Shown here in pieces: positions 14,323 through 33,004 of a stretch of DNA of 64,000 nt. Numbering within the stretch: position 1 is the stretch's first letter; the number at the start of each line of letters is the position of its first letter. A program made the position numbers and the translations under genes. This DNA comes from an uncultured Acidimicrobiia bacterium (GTDB taxonomy: Bacteria; Actinomycetota; Acidimicrobiia; IMCC26256; PALSA-555): NCBI GenBank assembly GCA_963720675.1, contig CAVRGH010000010.1, positions 491,830 to 555,829 of the forward strand, given 5' to 3'. The notes below the pieces were generated by a model. It was not told the DNA's origin and searched no databases. It saw only the letters and a list, made by a program, of their open reading frames with translations.

Positions 14323-14413
14323 GGAGAGTGCTCAAGGTTCCGGACGTCGCGCGCCGATAGAACAAGTGATCGGACTGGGCTCCGGTCACCGACACCGAAA
14401 GGGGCACCAACCA

Positions 14414-14608
14414 ATGAACCTCTTCGTGCTGAAGACCTGGCTCACCGCCAAGTTCACGAAGGACGAGCAGGGCGCCAACCTGGTGGAGTACATCCTCCTG
14501 GTCGCCCTGATCGCCCTTGCCGTCATCGCTGCTGTCGTCTTCCTGCGTGGTCAGGTCAGCGACAAGTTCAACGAGACCGGCTCGAAGCTGAGTAGCAACG
14601 GCAACTAG
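14414..14608 (+). CDS. flp: Flp family type IVb pilin (copy 1)
   Basis: MNLFVLKTWLTAKFTKDEQG/ANLVEYILLVALIALAVIA carries the Flp G/XXXXEY prepilin cleavage motif and a hydrophobic helix. AAAGGGG RBS upstream of ATG 14414. Confidence 0.85.
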   Translation: MNLFVLKTWLTAKFTKDEQGANLVEYILLVALIALAVIAAVVFLRGQVSDKFNETGSKLSSNGN

Positions 14609-14643
14609 TCACACCCGCAGAGTCAGGAACGAAAGGGGTTCGT

Positions 14644-14841
14644 ATGAACCTGTTCGTGCTGAAGACCTGGCTCCAAGCGAAGTTCACGAAGGACGAGCAA
14701 GGCGCCAACCTGGTGGAGTACATCCTCCTGGTCGCCCTCATCGCCCTGGCGGTCATCGCCGCAGTGGTCTTCATGCGGGGCCAAGTGAGTGACAAGTTCA
14801 ACGAGGCCGGCAGCAAGGTCGGGAACGCTCCCAACCCGTAA
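14644..14841 (+). CDS. flp: Flp family type IVb pilin (copy 2, tandem paralog)
   Basis: 65-aa ORF nearly identical to copy 1 through residue about 50 (G/ANLVEY motif). It diverges in the C-terminal tail (NEAGSKVGNAPNP versus NETGSKLSSNGN). Confidence 0.85.
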   Translation: MNLFVLKTWLQAKFTKDEQGANLVEYILLVALIALAVIAAVVFMRGQVSDKFNEAGSKVGNAPNP

Positions 14842-21202: not shown

Positions 21203-21928
21203 CTACCGGCTCGATGCCGAGGCTGTGGAGTCCCCACCACCCGCCGCAGCGATCGGACGGAGCGTGAGGTACACGGACCCGGTCTTGTTCGCCGCGACGA
21301 CTGCGAGTGCGTCACTGGGACTCAGCTCGAAGGTGATGAGCCCGCTCGTGGCCGCGGCCGCCGAGGGCTGGCCGTTGCCACCCGCCGCGTTCGCTGCGGT
21401 CTCGGTGCCGACGGAGAGGACCTTCACGTCGTTGAGGATGTAGCCGGCGGAGCCGTCGGCCACGACCGCGATGTCCACGCGGTCCCCGGGTGCGATCTGG
21501 TTCGCGACGCCCCGTTCGGCGTCGACCGAGATCGTCACCGCGACCAGTCCCTTGTCGCCGATGGCCGCGGCGAGCGACCCGCCGCCACCCTCGGACGGGG
21601 CCACGAAGCTCGCGTCGGTGATGTACTGCCGGGCCTGGATCGTCGAGGCTGCGACCTTGCCGCCGAGCAGCGACGAGTCGGTCACCGCCGCCGGGGGCAC
21701 GGAGCCGCGCAGCACGTCCTTGGCCTGGATCAGCCCGTCCGCAACGGCAGCGTCACCGGTCGTCCCCTTCGGGATGTCGTTGACCGCGACGAAGGCCTGG
21801 ACCACGTCGACCTTGTCCGAGGCGCGCTGGTCGGCGCCCGAGACGTAGACGAAGACCAATAGGCCGGCCACAGCAGCCAGGACGACCGCCCCGGCCGCGA
21901 TCAGAGTCCGTCGGTTCCCCACGGGCAC
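21203..21928 (-). CDS. cpaB: Flp pilus assembly protein CpaB/RcpC (SAF domain)
   Basis: N-terminal TM (TLIAAGAVVLAAVAGLLVFVYV) followed by a SAF-like region (VVQAFVAVNDIPKGT...). The long ORF 21203..22147 overlaps rpsA. GTG at 21928 or 21922, after GAGGAG, is the plausible start. Confidence 0.75.
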   Translation of the reverse strand: MPVGNRRTLIAAGAVVLAAVAGLLVFVYVSGADQRASDKVDVVQAFVAVNDIPKGTTGDAAVADGLIQAKDVLRGSVPPAAVTDSSLLGGKVAASTIQARQYITDASFVAPSEGGGGSLAAAIGDKGLVAVTISVDAERGVANQIAPGDRVDIAVVADGSAGYILNDVKVLSVGTETAANAAGGNGQPSAAAATSGLITFELSPSDALAVVAANKTGSVYLTLRPIAAAGGGDSTASASSR

Positions 21929-21992
21929 GCTCCTCGAAAGTCGGTTGCCTCCCGACTTCTTTGGTCGGCCTGGGGTGGCCTCGCCTTGAGCG

Positions 21993-23336
21993 TTACTCGG
22001 GCGAGTTCTCCTCGGAGATCCCGGCCTCCGGGGCTCCTGCGGGCTCCTCGGCCGCCGCGACCGGCGCCTCGGCGCCTTCCGCTGCGGTTTCGGGCTGTAC
22101 CGGCGCCGCCTCGGCCGCTTCCGCCGCCTCGGCGCCCTCGACCGCATCCGCAGCCTCGGGCTCCTCCACGGCGATCTCCGGGCCGATGTAGTTGCCGGCC
22201 TCGTCGTAGGCGTGCTCGCCGAACTGGTCCTGGTACTCGGCCGCCACGACGCCGCCCTCGGCCGCCTGCTTGATGGAGAGCGAGATCCGGCGGCGCTCGA
22301 GGTCGATGTCGATGATCTTCACCCAGAGCTCCTCGCCGGGGGTGACGACCTGCTCCGGGGCCTCGACGTGGTGCACGGCCATCTCGGAGATGTGGACCAG
22401 ACCCTCGATCCCGTCACCGACCTGGACGAACGCGCCGAAGGGCACGAGCTTGGTGACCCGTCCGTAGACCAGCTCGCCGACCTGGTGGCCATCGGCGAAC
22501 TCCTGCCACGGGTCCTGCTGCGTCGCCTTGAGCGAGAGCGAGATCCGCTCGCGATCGAGGTCGACGTCGAGCACCTGGACCGTGACCTCGTCGCCCACCT
22601 GCACGACGGAGCTCGGGTGGTCGACGTGCTTCCAGGACAGCTCGGACACGTGGACGAGTCCGTCCATGCCACCGAGGTCGACGAATGCACCGAAGTTCAC
22701 GACCGACGAGACCACTCCCTTGCGGATCTCGCCCGGCTTGAGGTTCGTGAGGAACTCGTCGCGCTGCTCGCGCTGCGTCTCCTCGAGGTACGCGCGCCGC
22801 GAGAGGACGACGTTGTTGCGGTTCTTGTCGAGCTCGATGATCTTGCACTCGAGCGTCTTGCCCACGAACGGCGCGAGATCGCGCACGCGGCGCAGATCGA
22901 CGAGCGAGGCGGGCAGGAAGCCTCGGAGTCCGATGTCGAGGATCAGGCCGCCCTTGACCACCTCGATGACCGGCCCCTCGACGATGCCTTCCTTCTCCTT
23001 GATCTCCTCGATCGTCCCCCAGGCGCGCTCGTACTGCGCGCGCTTCTTGGAGAGGATGAGGCGACCGTCCTTGTCCTCCTTGGTGAGGACGAGGGCCTCG
23101 AGCTGCTGCTCGAGGGTGACGACCTCGTTCGGGTCGACGTCGTTGCGGATCGAGAGCTCGCGCGAAGGGATGACGCCTTCGGACTTGTAGCCGATGTCGA
23201 GCAGGACCTCGTCACTGTCGATCTTGACGACGATGCCGGTGACGATGTCACCGTCGTCGAAGGCCACGATCGTGGCGTCGACCGCGTCCGAGAACGACTG
23301 GCCGCCGAGGTCGTCGAACACCACGGGGGCGTCCAT
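21993..23336 (-). CDS. rpsA: 30S ribosomal protein S1
   Basis: 447-aa ORF with four S1 repeats (GDIVTGIVVKIDSDEVLLDIGYKSEGVIPSRELS...). GGGAGG lies 5 nt before ATG 23336. Acidic A/E/P-rich C-terminal tail. Confidence 0.93.
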   Translation of the reverse strand: MDAPVVFDDLGGQSFSDAVDATIVAFDDGDIVTGIVVKIDSDEVLLDIGYKSEGVIPSRELSIRNDVDPNEVVTLEQQLEALVLTKEDKDGRLILSKKRAQYERAWGTIEEIKEKEGIVEGPVIEVVKGGLILDIGLRGFLPASLVDLRRVRDLAPFVGKTLECKIIELDKNRNNVVLSRRAYLEETQREQRDEFLTNLKPGEIRKGVVSSVVNFGAFVDLGGMDGLVHVSELSWKHVDHPSSVVQVGDEVTVQVLDVDLDRERISLSLKATQQDPWQEFADGHQVGELVYGRVTKLVPFGAFVQVGDGIEGLVHISEMAVHHVEAPEQVVTPGEELWVKIIDIDLERRRISLSIKQAAEGGVVAAEYQDQFGEHAYDEAGNYIGPEIAVEEPEAADAVEGAEAAEAAEAAPVQPETAAEGAEAPVAAAEEPAGAPEAGISEENSPE

Positions 23337-23681
23337 GTCGACCTCCCGATCTTCCTCGGGGCGGTCCTCTCCCTCGGCGGGCGTCCGCTGCCGACGGGGC
23401 CGCCTCGGGTGCCGATGCCTCCGGGGCCGCCGACTCGGGCATGGCCTCCGGGGTGATCTCGGTGGGTGCTGCTTCGGGGGCCGGCGTCGCGCCTGCGTCC
23501 CCCGCTTCCTGCTCCAGGACGGTGGCGCTGCCGCCGACCGTCGCGTCCTGCTCCGACAACTTCTGACTCCTCGAGAACCCTGGGCGCCCGCACGGCGACG
23601 GGACTCCCACCAAGGTCGGGGTCAGGACGCGAACACGGACGACACAGCCCCCGGCGGGGACTGCGCATCCAGGCTATCCGT

Positions 23682-24440
23682 TCAGTTCCCGCAACGCCCC
23701 ACCAGCAGCAGCTCCGGGTCGTCGAGCGAGGGTGGCGCGGCGCGGTAGCCCCCGGGCGCGACCCCGAAGATCCCGTCCACCGAGACGCCTGCGGTCCGGG
23801 CCAAGAGGTCGAGCTCGCGCGCCGTGAAGCAGGTGGTCCAGAGGTCGAAGGGCTGCTCCTCCCCCGCCTCGTTGCGCACCGTCGCGACCTCGTGCAGCAC
23901 ACCGGTCGCGGGATCGAACTCCTCGCCGGCTTCGAGATGCCGGATCGCGAACGGTGCGTGGAAGGCGGAGACCGCGAGCCCGCCGCCGGGGCGAACGGCC
24001 CGCACGATGCGGTGGAAGACCTCCGCCTCGTCGCGCCCGCCCAGCAACCCGAAACCGCCTTGGCACAGGCAGATCGCGGCGTCGAACTCGGCGTCGAACG
24101 CGAGCTCCCGCACGTCGAGCACGGTGAACGTCGCGGGCAGCCCCTCGGCCTCGGCTGCCGACCGGGCGAGGTCGACGAAGTCGGGCGACAGGTCGACGCC
24201 GAGCACCTCGATGCCACGTGCCGCGAGCGCGAGCGCATGGCGCCCGGGACCACACCCCACGTCGAGGACCCGGTCCCCGTGCCCGAGCCCGAGTGCGTCG
24301 ACGAGGAACGAGACCTCTTGCTCCGTGCCCTTCGTGAAGGCCATGACCCGACCGGTATCAGGCGCCCAGTAGGTCCTGCCCAGGAACGCGGCAATCGGGT
24401 TGAACCACGCTCCCTCGGGAGGCAGTGGCAGGTCCGGCAT
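23682..24440 (-). CDS. Class I SAM-dependent methyltransferase
   Basis: 252-aa ORF with VLDVGCGPGRHALALAARGIEVLGVDLS motif I and a post-I acidic residue. Confidence 0.8.
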   Translation of the reverse strand: MPDLPLPPEGAWFNPIAAFLGRTYWAPDTGRVMAFTKGTEQEVSFLVDALGLGHGDRVLDVGCGPGRHALALAARGIEVLGVDLSPDFVDLARSAAEAEGLPATFTVLDVRELAFDAEFDAAICLCQGGFGLLGGRDEAEVFHRIVRAVRPGGGLAVSAFHAPFAIRHLEAGEEFDPATGVLHEVATVRNEAGEEQPFDLWTTCFTARELDLLARTAGVSVDGIFGVAPGGYRAAPPSLDDPELLLVGRCGN

Positions 24441-24454
24441 CGAGACGCGAGCCT

Positions 24455-25840
24455 ATGACCATGCCCGAGGACGACCTCACGAACGATGATCCCGTCACGC
24501 GACGCAGCCCGAAGCACGTCGGTCTCCGGGCTCTGGTCGTTCGCTCCCGCCCGTTCCGGAGTGCCGTCCGTCGTTCGAAGCATGTCCGTCATTCGAGACT
24601 GCTCGATCGGCTGCGGTGGTGGCGGCGTCGTCCCGTCACCCTCAACGAGAAGATCCGATACAAGATGGCGAAGGACCGTCGCCCGCTGCTGACCACGTTC
24701 TCGGACAAGTTGGCGGTCCGCGACTACGTCGCCAGTCGTGTGGATCCGGACATCCTCAACCATGTCTTCCTCACCGCAGCGGACCCGAGGGAGATCGACG
24801 TCGAGCAGCTCCCGGACCCCTGCGTGATCAAGCCCACGCATGGCAGCGGTGCCGTCATCCTGGTGCACGACGGGGCGGACCCGAGCGCGGTGATCCCCGG
24901 CGTCCCGGACGGCGCCGGTTGGGTCTCGGGCACGGTCTCGATCCGGAGGGACCGCATCGACCAGGCGCGGTTCAACTCACTGGCCGACAGCTGGCTCTCC
25001 GCGGACTACGGGCGCACAACCTCGTGGGCCCAGTGGGCGTACCGGGATGTCCCGCCTCGCCTCATCGTGGAACGTTTCCTCGAGGGGCGCGACGGCGTGG
25101 CCCCGACGGAGTACAAGCTCATGGTCTTCCACGGAAGGGTGCGGTGGCTCTACCAGGTGGCGATCGCGGCGCCCAGGAGGCTCAGTCTGTTCTGGCCCGA
25201 CTGGACCCCGATTCCCGCGACCTACGGATTCGCGAAGCACGAGGATCCGCCGTCGGCCCCACGAGCACTCGAGGAAATGATCGCGGTCGCCGAAGCACTC
25301 GGTTCCGAGACCGACTTCGTCCGCGTCGACCTCTACGACGTGGACGGCCGGATGATCTTCGGGGAGCTCACCAACTACTCGCAGGGGGGACGTGGGATTC
25401 TCGACCCCCCCGAGTACCGGACGATTCTTGCTGACGGATGGGATCCACCGGCCCGGTACAGCGGCTCGGGTCGGAGGCGGGCAAGCCGCGCCGAAGGGGA
25501 GCGGAGGCCGTCAACCCTTGGCGGTCGCCCTGTTCGGGCCGAAGCCGATGTCGACCACACTGTCGATCTTGACGACCAGCCGGTGACGAGCGCCTTCGTC
25601 GAAGGCTGCTGCGCGCGGCGGCTGCCCTCAGGCGTCGGCCACCGGGTTGTTCCCCCAGAACTCCTCCATCGCCTCGCTGTCGAGGTCGACGGTCCAGACG
25701 CGTTCGACGTTGCCGTCCGCGTCCAGTCGGGAGATGTAGATCGCCCGGTTGTCGAAGACGTCCCCGCTCGTGGCGTGACGCCCCGTCTCGGCGACCAGGG
25801 CGGAGTGCCGCAGAAGGAGAGAAGGAGAACTCAGATGTAG
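24455..25840 (+). CDS. TupA-like ATP-grasp protein; ORF stays open about 110 codons past the end of recognisable homology
   Basis: LNEKIRYKMAKDRRPLLTTFSDKLAVRDYV...CVIKPTHGSGAVILV...EYKLMVFHGRV...DFVRVDLYDVDGRMIFGELTNY resembles the ATPgrasp_TupA family. Homology ends about 25480 (ADGWDPPARY). The remainder runs antisense through the polA-3'-like remnant and NTF2-like fragment, so the stop was probably lost or shifted. Start could be GTG 24425 or ATG 24455/24461. Confidence 0.65.
   Translation: MTMPEDDLTNDDPVTRRSPKHVGLRALVVRSRPFRSAVRRSKHVRHSRLLDRLRWWRRRPVTLNEKIRYKMAKDRRPLLTTFSDKLAVRDYVASRVDPDILNHVFLTAADPREIDVEQLPDPCVIKPTHGSGAVILVHDGADPSAVIPGVPDGAGWVSGTVSIRRDRIDQARFNSLADSWLSADYGRTTSWAQWAYRDVPPRLIVERFLEGRDGVAPTEYKLMVFHGRVRWLYQVAIAAPRRLSLFWPDWTPIPATYGFAKHEDPPSAPRALEEMIAVAEALGSETDFVRVDLYDVDGRMIFGELTNYSQGGRGILDPPEYRTILADGWDPPARYSGSGRRRASRAEGERRPSTLGGRPVRAEADVDHTVDLDDQPVTSAFVEGCCARRLPSGVGHRVVPPELLHRLAVEVDGPDAFDVAVRVQSGDVDRPVVEDVPARGVTPRLGDQGGVPQKERRRTQM
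25480..25606 (-). repeat. Orphan diverged duplicate of the polA 3' terminus (with its own stop)
   Basis: Minus strand reads ...LVVKIDSVVDIGFGPNRATAKG-TGA (stop 25513..25511). polA reads ...NVPLVVDIGFGPNWATAKD at 26325-26372. About 40 of 46 nt are identical in the core. Shared blocks continue past the stop: TGACGGCC and CGGCGCGGC at the same spacing. Copy offset is 810-811 bp. Confidence 0.6.
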
Positions 25841-25846
25841 GCACAT
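25628..25846 (-). pseudogene. C-terminal fragment of an NTF2/SnoaL-like protein (best preserved of three tandem degenerate copies, 25628-26170)
   Basis: ...HATSGDVFDNRAIYISRLDADGNVERVWTVDLDSEAMEEFWGNNPVADA. A second copy (25852-26010) aligns at DNA level but needs 2 frameshifts (HSTSGHVLDIR/SIYIFLLDCGTV/RYVEHVLPTFYLDSEAMEEFSGTNP). A third, weaker copy lies around 26100-26170 (VFDNGPGG). No full-length N-terminal half is present. Confidence 0.35.
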
Positions 25847-26320
25847 CCGGGTTAGTTCCCGAGAACTCCTCCATAGCCTCGCTGTCGAGGTAGAAGGTAG
25901 GCAGGACGTGTTCGACGTACCGTACCGCAGTCCAGTAGGAAGATGTAGATCGACCCGTATGTCGAGGACGTGCCCGCTCGTGGAGTGAAGTCACATGCGC
26001 AGATGCGGAATGCTCGTTGGCGAACACACACGTCCGGCCTGGTGGAACGAGTCACCGAAGATCGGCAGGAACTTCATCATCAGCTCCACGACACAAAGGC
26101 TTCTCGACCTTCGGTGTGCCGCCATGGCCCCCCGGCCCGTTGTCGAAGACACGCCGGCGCGTGCGAGTCAGCGCGGCACCGGCTCGCCCGACGCGAGCGT
26201 GTCCCAGATCGCCTGGTCTCGAGCGAGCGCGTCCGGCTCGTTCACCGTCCAGCTCTCGTCGTGGCGGCAACTGTAGTGACGCGTGCCGGTCGCGGGCCGC
26301 GCCGGACGCGGCGCGGGCCG

Positions 26321-28987
26321 TCACGTCCTTGGCAGTCGCCCAATTCGGTCCGAAGCCGATGTCGACGACGAGCGGGACGTTGAGCTCGGTGACGGACTCC
26401 ATCGTCTCGCGCAGGACGGGCTCGACCCGTTCGCGCTCGTCGACGGGCACCTCGAAGACGAGCTCGTCGTGCACGGTCAGGAGCATCCGCGTCTCGAAGC
26501 CACCCGCGTCGAGCGCGGCGTCGACGTCGATCATCGCCAGCTTGAAGATGTCGGCGGCCGAACCCTGGATCGGCGCGTTCTGCGCCATCCGCTCCCCCAT
26601 CTGGCGGATGCGGAAGTTGTCGGACGACAGCTCGGCGATCTGGCGCCGCCGACCGAAGATCGTGGTCGTGTAGCCGCGGCCCTTCGCCTCTTCCACCGTC
26701 TCGCTCCATGAACGCGGCGACGTTGGGGAACGCCTCGAAGTAGTCGTCGAGGATGACCCGCGCCTCGTCGACCGCGACATCCATGCGCTGGCTCAGGCCG
26801 TACGCCTCCATGCCGTAGGCGAGCCCGTAGTTCACGACCTTGGCGAAGCGACGGTCCTCTGCGTTCACGTCGGCCTCGTCCTTGTGGAAGACCTTCGCGG
26901 CGGTGGCGGTGTGGATGTCGACGCCGCGCTCGAACGCATCGACGAGGCCCGGGTCCTCTGCGAGGTGCGCGAGGACGCGCAGCTCGATCTGGCTGTAGTC
27001 GGCCGTGAGCAAACCGAAGCCGTCGTCCGCGACGAACGCCCGGCGGAACTCCCGACCGTCCGCGGTCCGGACCGGGATGTTCTGGAGGTTCGGTGCCTCG
27101 CTGGAGATCCGGCCGGTCGTGGTGTCGGTCTGCTTGAAGGTCGCGTGGATCCGCCCGTCGGGACCGATGAGCGGGGGCAGGGCATCGGCGTAGGTGCCGC
27201 GCAGCTTCTCGACCTCCCGGTAGTGGAGGAGGTCGGCGACGATCGGGTGGTCGTCGATCATCTTCTGCAGCGAGTCGGCGTCGGTGGACGGTCCGGTCTT
27301 GGTCTTCTTGACCGGAGTCAGCCCGAGCTTGTCGAAGAGCACGACGCGCATCTGCGGTGTGGAGTTCACGTTGAACTCCTCCCCGGCATGCGCCCAGATC
27401 GCGCGCATCAGGCGGTCGCACTCCTTGTTGAGCTCCGCGCTCAGCGCGCTCAGGAACTCGCGGTCCATGCGGATCCCGGTGCGCTCCATCTTCGCGAGCA
27501 CGCGCACGAGCGGCCGCTCGAACCGCTCGTACAGATCGGTGAGCTCTCGTGCGACGAGCGCTTCGCCCAGCACGTCGGCGAGCTGGAGCACCACCGCGGC
27601 GCGGCGCCCGGTCTCCTCGGCACCGGCCGTGCCTTCGAGGTCGAGCGTGCCCTCCTCGACGTCGGGCGAGCGCACCTCCAGAGAGAGGAACCGCAGCGCG
27701 AGATCCTCGAGCAGGAACTTCCCGGCGCCGGGATCGAGGAGGTACGCCATCACCGCGGTGTCCGACTCGAGGGTGCGCACGTCGGCACCGAGCCCGTGCA
27801 TGAGGTCCTTCGCACGGTGTGCCACCAGCGGCGGGCCCCCCGGCCCGACCAGCTCGCCACCCGCCGCGAGCACGTCCGGGTCGCCGAGCAACGCCCCGTC
27901 GAGGTACGACACGTCGCCGTCGTCGGTCGCGATCGCGAGCCCGATCAGTCCGCTCCGTCCGGGCGTGCCGTCCCAGCGGGCCTCGAGCGCGTAGCGCTTC
28001 CCCGCCTTCGCGATCGCCCGGAGGCGCTTCGTCGCCGCCGCCGCGTCGCGGAGCACGACCACTTCGGTCTCCAGCGTCTCGGACTCCGCCTCCGGTTCGG
28101 CCGCGACCGCACCGACCGCGGCCATCATCCGCGGGAGCAGCGTGCGGAACGCGAGCTGATCGAAGAGCACCCGCACGCGCTCCTGGTCGAAGGCGCCCTG
28201 GCGCAGCTCGTCGGGCGTGATGCCGGTGTCGACGTCGAGACGCAGCTCCGACATGTCGCGGTTCAGCCGCACGCGATCGGCCATCTCGGTGAGGTTCTGG
28301 CGCTGCTTCGGGGGGAGCTCGTCGACGTGGGCGAGGATCCCTTCGATGTCGCCGTAGGTCGTGACGAGCTTCGCCGCCGTCTTCTCGCCGATCCCGGGGA
28401 CGCCCGGCAGGTTGTCGCTGGAGTCACCCCGCAGCGCGGCGTACTGGACGTACTGGTCGGGCGTGACGCCACCGGTCCGCTCGACGATCCCCGCCTCGTC
28501 GTAGAGGGCGTAGTCCGAGACGCCGCGCTTGTTGTAGAGGACCTTGAGGTGCGGGTCGTGCACGAGCTGGAACGCGTCGCGGTCGCCGGTGACGACCACG
28601 ACGTCCATGCCGCCGTCGGCGGCCTGGGTCGCGAGCGTCGCGATCACGTCGTCGGCCTCCACGCCCTCGATCTCGATCGTCGGGATCTCGAGGACCTCGA
28701 GCACCTCCCGGATGAGGGGGAGCTGCGACTTGAAGACGTCGGGCGTGGCCTTGCGCCCGGCCTTGTAGTCGGGGTCCATCGTCGTGGCGGAAGGACTTCA
28801 CCGGCGCGTCGAACGCGACGCCGATCAGCTCGGGCTGCTCGTCGGCCAGCACCTTCGTGAGCATCGAGGTGAAGCCGAAGACGGCGTTCGTGATCGTCCC
28901 GTCGGGGGTCGCGAGATCTGCAGGCAGCGCGTAGAACGCCCGGTACGCGAGCGAGTGCCCGTCGAGGAGGAGAAGCTTCTCGGCCAT
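26321..28987 (-). pseudogene. polA: DNA polymerase I, reading frame broken three times (about 28781, 26712 and 26325)
   Basis: The 5'-nuclease N-terminus MAEKLLLLDGHSLAYRAFYALP...FDAPVKSFRHD is in ORF 28424..28987. The body (DPDYKAGRKATPD ... KTGPSTDADSLQ ... ADYSQIELRVLAHL) is in 26242..28779. The palm/fingers end (TTTIFGRRRQI...QGSAADIFKLAMI...LLTVHDELVFE...VDIGFGPNWATAKD) is in 26052..26780. One extra nt (AAGGACGTGA versus AAGGGTTGA in the orphan copy) removes the expected stop at 26323..26321, so the frame runs on to 26052. Confidence 0.93.
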
Positions 28988-32908: not shown

Positions 32909-32920
32909 GTGCGTTCGATG

Positions 32921-33004
32921 GTGCCCGAGGAGGGATTCGAACCCTCATGCCCTTTCGAGCAATGGATTTTGAGTCCATCGTGTATGCCGTTCCACCACTC
33001 GGGC
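32921..33004 (-). tRNA. tRNA-Leu (anticodon CAA), encoded CCA
   Basis: Minus strand: GCCCGAGTGGTGGAACGGCATACACGATGGACTCAAAATCCATTGCTCGAAAGGGCATGAGGGTTCGAATCCCTCCTCGGGCACCA. It has a 7-bp acceptor stem, anticodon loop CT-CAA-AA, a long variable arm and a GGTTCGAATCC T-arm. Confidence 0.93.

Follow-up and report, generated by a model that had tools for sequence, protein, structure and literature searches.

Homology-facilitated illegitimate recombination, known from naturally transforming Acinetobacter and Streptococcus, combines one homologous anchor with a join at microhomology, and tandem-duplication join points at short repeats are known from RecA-independent slipped misalignment in Escherichia coli and Salmonella. 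Microhomology-mediated template switching of the FoSTeS/MMBIR type (fork stalling and template switching/microhomology-mediated break-induced replication) has been defined mainly in eukaryotes. Integrative elements such as e14 and phage 21 in icd, and the islands that target tRNA and transfer-messenger RNA (tmRNA) genes, restore the 3' end of the gene into which they insert. Long-read metagenome-assembled genomes can in addition carry an indel-rich consensus. Here we analyse a stretch of 64,000 nucleotides (nt) from an uncultured Acidimicrobiia bacterium (contig CAVRGH010000010.1, positions 491,830 to 555,829; hereafter the window, with a GC content of ~70%), in which a second, orphan copy of the 3' end of polA lies downstream of polA itself. 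A preliminary description, made from the letters of the window, had read this arrangement as an old insertion into the 3' end of polA that carried its own replacement gene end and then decayed. We lean, with modest confidence, towards a different reading, in which the second polA end is the scar of microhomology-mediated illegitimate recombination during the gain of accessory genes, and the decay that seems to surround it is probably consensus error.

The window was compared with 80 genome loci recovered by a scan with the polA C-terminus (L001-L080, labelled Acidimicrobiia, Actinomycetota or similar), the closest of which show 96, 95, 92 and 91% protein identity, and with a contig of 6.9 kb from the Joint Genome Institute (JGI; Ga0673032_0028748, here L081), reached via a 99%-identical homologue of the window's ATP-grasp gene. 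L081 corresponds to window positions 21245-28308 at ~96-98% identity, ~2% of positions being different. Its gene order is that of the window (rpsA, methyltransferase, ATP-grasp, a chimera of rpsA and polA described below, one gene, polA), and its open reading frames (ORFs) are intact: polA is continuous, a SnoaL-like gene encodes 146 residues and the ATP-grasp gene has its stop. The two polA ends and their flanks occupy the following positions in the window:

26325-28987, minus strand: polA (DNA polymerase I), with the Pfam domains 5_3_exonuc_N, 5_3_exonuc and DNA_pol_A split over three ORFs

26263-26324, minus strand: t1 (TGACGGCC...), the sequence 3' of the resident polA end, homologous to t2 by alignment

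25558-25511, minus strand: orphan polA end, VVDIGFGPNRATAKG followed by TGA, with a conserved W replaced by R

25460-25510, minus strand: t2, the sequence 3' of the orphan end, a homologue of t1 that reaches the lost ATP-grasp stop

The resident polA end reads ...VVDIGFGPNWATAKD at 26372-26325 on the minus strand. A repeat finder paired 26369-26327 with 25558-25516 on that strand (43 nt, 88% identical, 811 bp apart), and a gapped alignment of the two ends reached beyond the stop through TGACGGCC and CGGCGCGGC, with a score (80) well above that of shuffled sequences (20 ± 3.3), which upholds both the second polA end and the shared blocks past its stop that had been noticed earlier. In L081, 41 of 48 nt are identical between resident and orphan end, five of the seven differences falling at third codon positions, and the flanks t1 and t2 agree in ~42 of 66 alignment columns. 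While polA ends in ...AK-stop in all scored relatives, both window copies have an extra codon followed by TGACGGCC, a derived state. An identical core of 17-20 nt, GTCGACATCGGCTTCGG(CCC), is common to the two ends and coincides with a microhomology that is also found in rpsA, which brings in a second group of features:

21993-23336, minus strand: rpsA (ribosomal protein S1), from which the orphan fragment derives, recognized by its ORF, by synteny and by alignment to the fragment

25555-25606, minus strand: orphan rpsA fragment, codons ~24-41, AFDDGDIVTGIVVKIDS, placed by alignment to the window's own rpsA, with three small indels in the window

25543-25554, minus strand: junction microhomology TCGACATCGGCT, 12 nt, exact, with further occurrences at 23200-23189 (rpsA) and within 26366-26350 (polA)

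25607-25627, minus strand: spacer of 21 nt from the SnoaL-like stop to the rpsA fragment

The stretch directly upstream of the orphan tail (25606-25559) does not belong to polA but is a copy of rpsA. The fragment aligned to window rpsA at 23264-23189 with a score of 72 (shuffles, 19 ± 2.8), and the rpsA 5' region of dozens of relatives, located 0.4-4.6 kb downstream of polA, matches 25606-25543 over 48-64 nt; in L081 the fragment is identical to rpsA at 52 of 52 positions. The scar between the SnoaL-like and ATP-grasp genes is a mosaic of ~160 nt, composed of 52 nt of rpsA, the last 16 codons of polA and ~50-60 nt of flank. At the join, the 12 nt of TCGACATCGGCT are identical in rpsA and polA because both genes encode a DIG motif. 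The 5' part of rpsA precedes the 3' part of polA, both on the minus strand, although rpsA lies downstream of polA; a join of the duplication or template-switch type has its parts in this order and in direct orientation. The duplicated DNA is limited to ~110 nt of polA tail plus flank and 52 nt of rpsA; as to a full tandem duplication, neither a second methyltransferase (searched with a hidden Markov model, HMM) nor a second ATP-grasp gene was found. At the polA-downstream spot of the 73 relatives that could be scored there were no orphan polA or rpsA pieces (scores of at most 37, against 68-108 in the window and L081).

The assembly is visibly error-prone, which would be in keeping with the whole arrangement, orphan end included, being an assembly chimera or an expansion artefact. 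However, the chimera is present, in cleaner form, in the independent and ~98%-identical JGI contig, which differs at ~2% of positions, and it is therefore not to be put down to the assembly; this explanation is largely refuted and we give it next to no weight.

One reading frame runs through the stop codon of the SnoaL-like gene (TGA), the fragment of rpsA and the orphan tail of polA (25630-25511, and the equivalent positions of L081). This is probably a coincidence; read-through would append ~40 residues. Candidate readings of t1 and t2 as a terminator or structured RNA were rejected on the basis of fold z-scores (-0.19 for t1 and +1.13 for t2, nothing unusual), of a consensus scan, in which there was no sigma-70-like promoter and terminator-like sites were no commoner than in shuffles, and of Rfam, which matched a tRNA-Leu only. 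The latter (anticodon CAA, 32919-33004, minus strand) is the sole Rfam or ARAGORN match in the window. A dispersed repeat was likewise rejected, there being no further copies of t1/t2 within the window or in the four metagenomic loci L082-L085, which carry SnoaL-like homologues.

The setting of the scar becomes clear from the relatives, most of the 80 having polA, a methyltransferase and rpsA in this order on one strand. In the window the methyltransferase is found here:

23682-24440, minus strand: S-adenosylmethionine (SAM)-dependent methyltransferase (Pfam Methyltransf_25), a conserved gene, in relatives the first one after polA

In L001 and L002, which are the closest relatives, the start of the methyltransferase lies at most ~20 nt from the stop of polA; in the window, polA (26325) and the methyltransferase (24440) are separated by ~1.9 kb of additional DNA. 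No ATP-grasp or SnoaL-like gene lies near polA in any of the 80 relatives, so that the comparison of empty and filled sites points to a lineage-specific insertion after polA. The spot is variable: the interval from polA to rpsA ranges from ~0.2 to 6 kb among the relatives and harbours unrelated inserts.

As separate observations on this junction, we note that in relatives the stop of polA adjoins or overlaps the start of the methyltransferase (for example AAGTGA in L016-L019), that the junction is variable in L004, L012, L044, L047, L048, L052, L067, L068 and others, and that the inserts often include a convergent gene whose stop abuts that of polA.

An insertion at the end of a gene, with a displaced gene end downstream, could also have been produced by a site-specific integrative element that brought a replacement polA end and whose integrase has since been deleted. 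The identical core of 17-20 nt in both ends, the mostly synonymous differences between the tails and the 'empty' site of the relatives are all consistent with such an element. This explanation is nevertheless very unlikely for the following reasons: (i) as already remarked in the preliminary description, the ORFs between polA and the methyltransferase include no integrase or transposase, nor is there an excisionase, and only the SnoaL-like and ATP-grasp genes lie between or beside the repeats; (ii) the arm that adjoins the downstream repeat reproduces, in L081 exactly, 52 nt of host rpsA; (iii) what comes after the displaced end is the lineage-specific ATP-grasp gene, not the ancestral methyltransferase start; (iv) such repeats are lacking in the 73 scored relatives, many of which have other inserts here. 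An rpsA arm of 52 nt joined at a 12-nt microhomology speaks for illegitimate recombination rather than for an attachment (att) site. The proposal of an insertion with a replacement gene end thus stands as far as the lineage-specific insert and the displaced polA end are concerned, but the rpsA arm and the 12-nt join argue against an element that targets 3' termini.

How, then, might illegitimate recombination have produced this scar? From its anatomy we infer an order and a type of recombination events, and the simplest single history, which we offer tentatively and rate below even, is one-sided homologous recombination combined with a template switch. A related strain would have supplied DNA with the layout 'polA end - t1 - SnoaL-like gene', which recombined homologously inside polA. 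The far end of the incoming DNA would have been resolved by illegitimate template-switch joining, ~52 nt of resident rpsA being copied first, and synthesis or ligation would then have passed via the 12-nt TCGACATCGGCT into the resident polA end. In this way the native polA end (its tail together with t2) would have been pushed downstream to become the orphan. In light of the different degrees of identity in L081 (tails 41/48 with mostly third-position differences, flanks ~42/66, rpsA 52/52), the tails look like two once-functional orthologous polA ends, and the third-position bias between them fits incoming DNA with a polA end of its own. The rpsA piece, identical throughout as compared to the tails, appears to be a recent intragenomic copy.

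Some results weigh against gene gain by this route. Neither a donor-type genome (polA-t1-SnoaL) nor a recipient-type genome (polA-t2-ATP-grasp-methyltransferase without the chimera) was found, and comparison with L001 and L002 disclosed no recombination breakpoint within polA; identity to these two relatives, taken in 150-nt windows, lies at 75-93%; it dips near 28.1 kb but does not fall toward the 3' end, a profile that is uninformative. The left edge of the rpsA fragment (spacer/codon 24) is without obvious microhomology.

A tandem duplication of the entire stretch from the polA end to the 5' part of rpsA, by slipped or illegitimate recombination between the 12-nt repeats of the two genes, followed by deletions that eliminated one copy of every redundant gene and left the join and a short flank, explains the join equally well, the order, orientation and 12-nt microhomology being exactly those of a tandem-duplication junction. 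The derived AAGG..TGACGGCC end, which is common to both tails and missing from relatives, argues for an origin within the lineage, and the failure to find a foreign donor is in line with this. However, at least three events would be required (one duplication and two deletions), and the duplicated pieces would be expected to be of equal age, whereas rpsA fragment, tails and flanks in L081 differ as given above. Moreover, no methyltransferase remnant was found between polA and the junction with an HMM built from 53 relatives. When the debris was considered as a decayed methyltransferase copy, the same HMM run against the six-frame translation of 25400-26420 matched only a (V/L)D(I/V)G.GP motif at E ≥ 0.09, and this candidate was rejected. 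We therefore regard duplication and deletion as possible but doubtful.

The scar is to be distinguished from the apparent damage next to it, which concerns the SnoaL-like gene and both neighbouring stops:

25628-26262, minus strand: remnant of a SnoaL/NTF2-like gene, colinear with L081 4389-4829, with a start remnant ACG at 26262-26260 and a TGA stop at 25630-25628

25803-26002, minus strand: noisy block of 200 nt without counterpart in L081, in which a 193-nt unit of the SnoaL-like gene is repeated in degenerate and rotated form (internal tandem duplication)

The region had been thought to hold three tandem copies of the C-terminal half of an NTF2/SnoaL-like protein. In L081 the orthologue is a single intact ORF of 146 residues between polA and the chimera, and the window contains, instead of three copies, this one gene interrupted by one degenerate tandem unit of ~200 nt; what had been read as a third copy, near 26135-26169, is the N-terminal half of the gene, with the VIFDNGPGAGPW motif that is kept in all homologues. 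The assignment to the NTF2/SnoaL-like group holds weakly, through the L081 orthologue and its family, whereas the window fragments by themselves had no Pfam match at E ≤ 1. The L081 protein scored 24.7 bits against SnoaL_2 (PF12680; Pfam gathering cut-off 27; E = 3.7e-5; profile positions 3-100 of 102), and SnoaL_2 was matched at E ≤ 0.01 by all four full-length family members, that of L081 included (best, 2.3e-6). There was no PDB sequence match. A word-index homologue search with a C-terminal fragment of 58 residues gave no match, and the family was reached via L081 and a metagenome scan, which yielded four metagenomic homologues of the L081 protein (L082-L085; 64-73% identity, colinear), none of them near polA, rpsA or an ATP-grasp gene.

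Aligned to the clean 193-nt unit, the 200-nt block shows 145 matches, 18 substitutions (sense-strand G>T in nine cases), seven inserted and 12 deleted nt, and is ~16% different, while the parts of the unit that flank it are ~97-98% identical to L081. The block has a GC content of 0.57 and contains a CT-rich low-complexity run. The AT-richer stretch that had been perceived by eye at 25.84-26.1 kb is real, with a GC content of 0.56-0.60 over 25800-26100 as compared to 0.65-0.74 in the flanks. The only further tandem duplication in the window, at 14396-14838 (plus strand), consists of two Flp-pilin-like paralogues (MNLFVLKTWL.AKFTKDEQGANLVEYILLVALIALAVIAAVVF...), ~89% identical over 168 nt with mostly silent differences. 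As a candidate for a second noisy duplication it was rejected, the paralogues being intact and unrelated to the block in the SnoaL-like region.

An old insertion that later decayed is contradicted by L081, in which the 146-residue gene, the polA stop and the ATP-grasp stop are all intact. Comparison with L081 gives 17 small indels in the ~870 nt of 25460-26330, mostly 1-nt deletions and outside homopolymers, and one in the adjacent 4.2 kb; more than 12 indels fall in the ~440 nt of the SnoaL-like gene. Outside the 200-nt block the gene differs from that of L081 by 14 substitutions, of which 10 are synonymous third-position changes and four non-synonymous, so that the two copies look like functional alleles and not like a long-dead pseudogene; the combination of indels with substitutions rich in non-synonymous changes, by which a pseudogene is recognized against an intact orthologue, was not found. 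Both stops next to the region are affected. An additional nucleotide at 26326 abolishes the polA stop, as had been suspected (L081 has GCC AAG GCG TGA here, in one ORF finishing ...ATAKA-TGA), and the window ORF continues to 26052. On the opposite strand, the ATP-grasp gene lacks its TAG because one nucleotide is deleted at 25460, and the resulting read-through ORF of 461 residues runs antisense to 25840, which accounts for the earlier remark that this ORF lacks a stop.

Single-base frameshifts are not confined to this region. Besides +1 insertions in polA near 28780 and 26702 (relative to L001, L004, L005 and L081), insertions of this kind were found in an acyl-CoA dehydrogenase-like gene (30538), a fabD-like gene (34430) and a fabH-like gene (35464 and 35878), and at each of the six sites inspected the change was a single inserted nucleotide outside any homopolymer. 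Frameshifts in several conserved genes suggest an indel-prone consensus across the window. The read-through ORF of 461 residues is recorded at NCBI/ENA from a contig of 2,463,246 nt, a size that points to long-read assembly. Frameshifted methyltransferase and rpsA genes also occur in the long-contig relatives L039, L072 and L076. Another ORF is likewise frameshifted as compared to several relatives, and further such positions lie at about 32336 and 32451. In view of the intact genes observed in L081, we infer that the damage in the window (the 200-nt block, the indels and the lost stops) is probably long-read consensus error, to which strain heterogeneity in the accessory region may have added.

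The distribution of the indels tells against this interpretation. Their density in 25460-26330 is ~50 times that of the adjacent 4 kb, and most are deletions, whereas the frameshifts elsewhere are insertions; uniform sequencing error is thus no explanation, and local low coverage or strain heterogeneity must be assumed. The tight cluster (17 in ~870 nt against one in 4.2 kb), a deletion bias like that of bacterial pseudogenes and the strand-biased G>T changes in the noisy unit (9 of 18) would all fit biological damage, namely a recent inactivation of the SnoaL-like gene by a mutagenic internal tandem duplication (an error-prone template switch) in a region that is degenerating together with both stops. 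As opposed to this expectation, the predominance of synonymous changes outside the block (10 against four) indicates no prolonged neutral drift, the ratio of indels to substitutions is near 1, far above that of pseudogenes, and a ~16% diverged unit lies beside a twin that is ~2-3% diverged, a contrast that gradual divergence or decay after a duplication cannot yield. The +1 frameshifts in polA and in the fabD- and fabH-like genes of the same assembly, and the 2.46-Mb contig with its hint of long reads, likewise favour consensus error over biological damage, which we consider unlikely. Less probable still is a combination in which mosaic and noisy unit are both genuine products of error-prone, microhomology-primed template-switch repair, a first event having copied 52 nt of rpsA before the jump to the polA end and a second having made the 200-nt tandem copy with a strand-biased shower of G>T mutations; if true, the locus would represent a natural bacterial complex rearrangement of the MMBIR kind with clustered mutagenesis.

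The gene on the other side of the scar is the second accessory gene:

24455-25459, plus strand, convergent with polA: TupA-like ATP-grasp amidoligase (Pfam PF14305)

Its product matched PF14305 with 83.8 bits (cut-off 25) over profile positions 1-237 of 241, and the 99%-identical homologue in L081 (P0001) has 335 residues and ends in ...PARY-TAG. The GC content at third codon positions (GC3) is 0.84-0.87 in the accessory genes, as compared to 0.92-0.94 in polA, rpsA and a uvrA-like neighbour and 0.89 in the methyltransferase. The starts of the methyltransferase (24440, minus strand) and of the ATP-grasp gene (24455, plus strand) are divergent and 14 nt apart, and any promoters must therefore sit within the adjacent coding regions. 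Between 23750 and 24250 the methyltransferase differs from that of L081, a contig otherwise ~98-99% identical, by 16-17 substitutions per 250 nt without indels, compared to 0-5 in rpsA and the ATP-grasp gene; this stretch may be a recombined or fast-evolving allele.

Taken together, these results describe a known kind of recombination event, a further instance of it in an uncultured lineage, and no new kind of element or function. The locus is of value as a doubly attested example of accessory genes wedged between polA and the methyltransferase-rpsA pair without mobile-element machinery, at a breakpoint that is still legible in its 12-nt microhomology, its templated filler from a nearby gene and its displaced gene end. 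The features that first catch the eye (decaying fragments, lost stops, a read-through ORF) are probably assembly noise. They call for caution with long-read metagenome-assembled genomes, in which a gene that seems to decay or an ORF that reads through its stop can be a product of consensus noise; here the question was resolved by a near-identical independent contig.

Compared with the systems introduced at the outset, the noise resembles an indel-rich long-read consensus in that several conserved genes carry single-base frameshifts and are intact in the independent contig, but its local density and the noisy 200-nt duplicate are unusual for such a consensus. With e14 and phage 21 the locus shares a duplicated gene end, a displaced copy downstream of the insert and mostly synonymous differences; unlike those elements, it has no integrase, its repeat arm consists of host rpsA, no ancestral sequence follows the displaced end and the arrangement does not recur in relatives. 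Akin to FoSTeS/MMBIR products, short pieces templated by nearby loci (rpsA at 2.3 kb and the polA end at 0.8 kb) are stitched together at microhomology, although microhomology is clear at only one of the two joins. The fusion of the 5' part of downstream rpsA to the 3' part of upstream polA, in direct orientation and at a short exact repeat, is that of a tandem-duplication join point, from which the locus departs in that the intervening genes are single-copy and the duplicated pieces differ in apparent age. As compared to homology-facilitated illegitimate recombination, the microhomology here is longer (12 nt, 3-10 nt being usual), the join includes an extra 52-nt piece of rpsA, no donor was found, and uptake and transformation would be wholly conjectural. 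What the locus does share with this process, the term for which appears in PMC6382021, is DNA added beside a possible anchor (polA), microhomology at the far end, the absence of a recombinase gene and an anchor end that would have come in with the new DNA.

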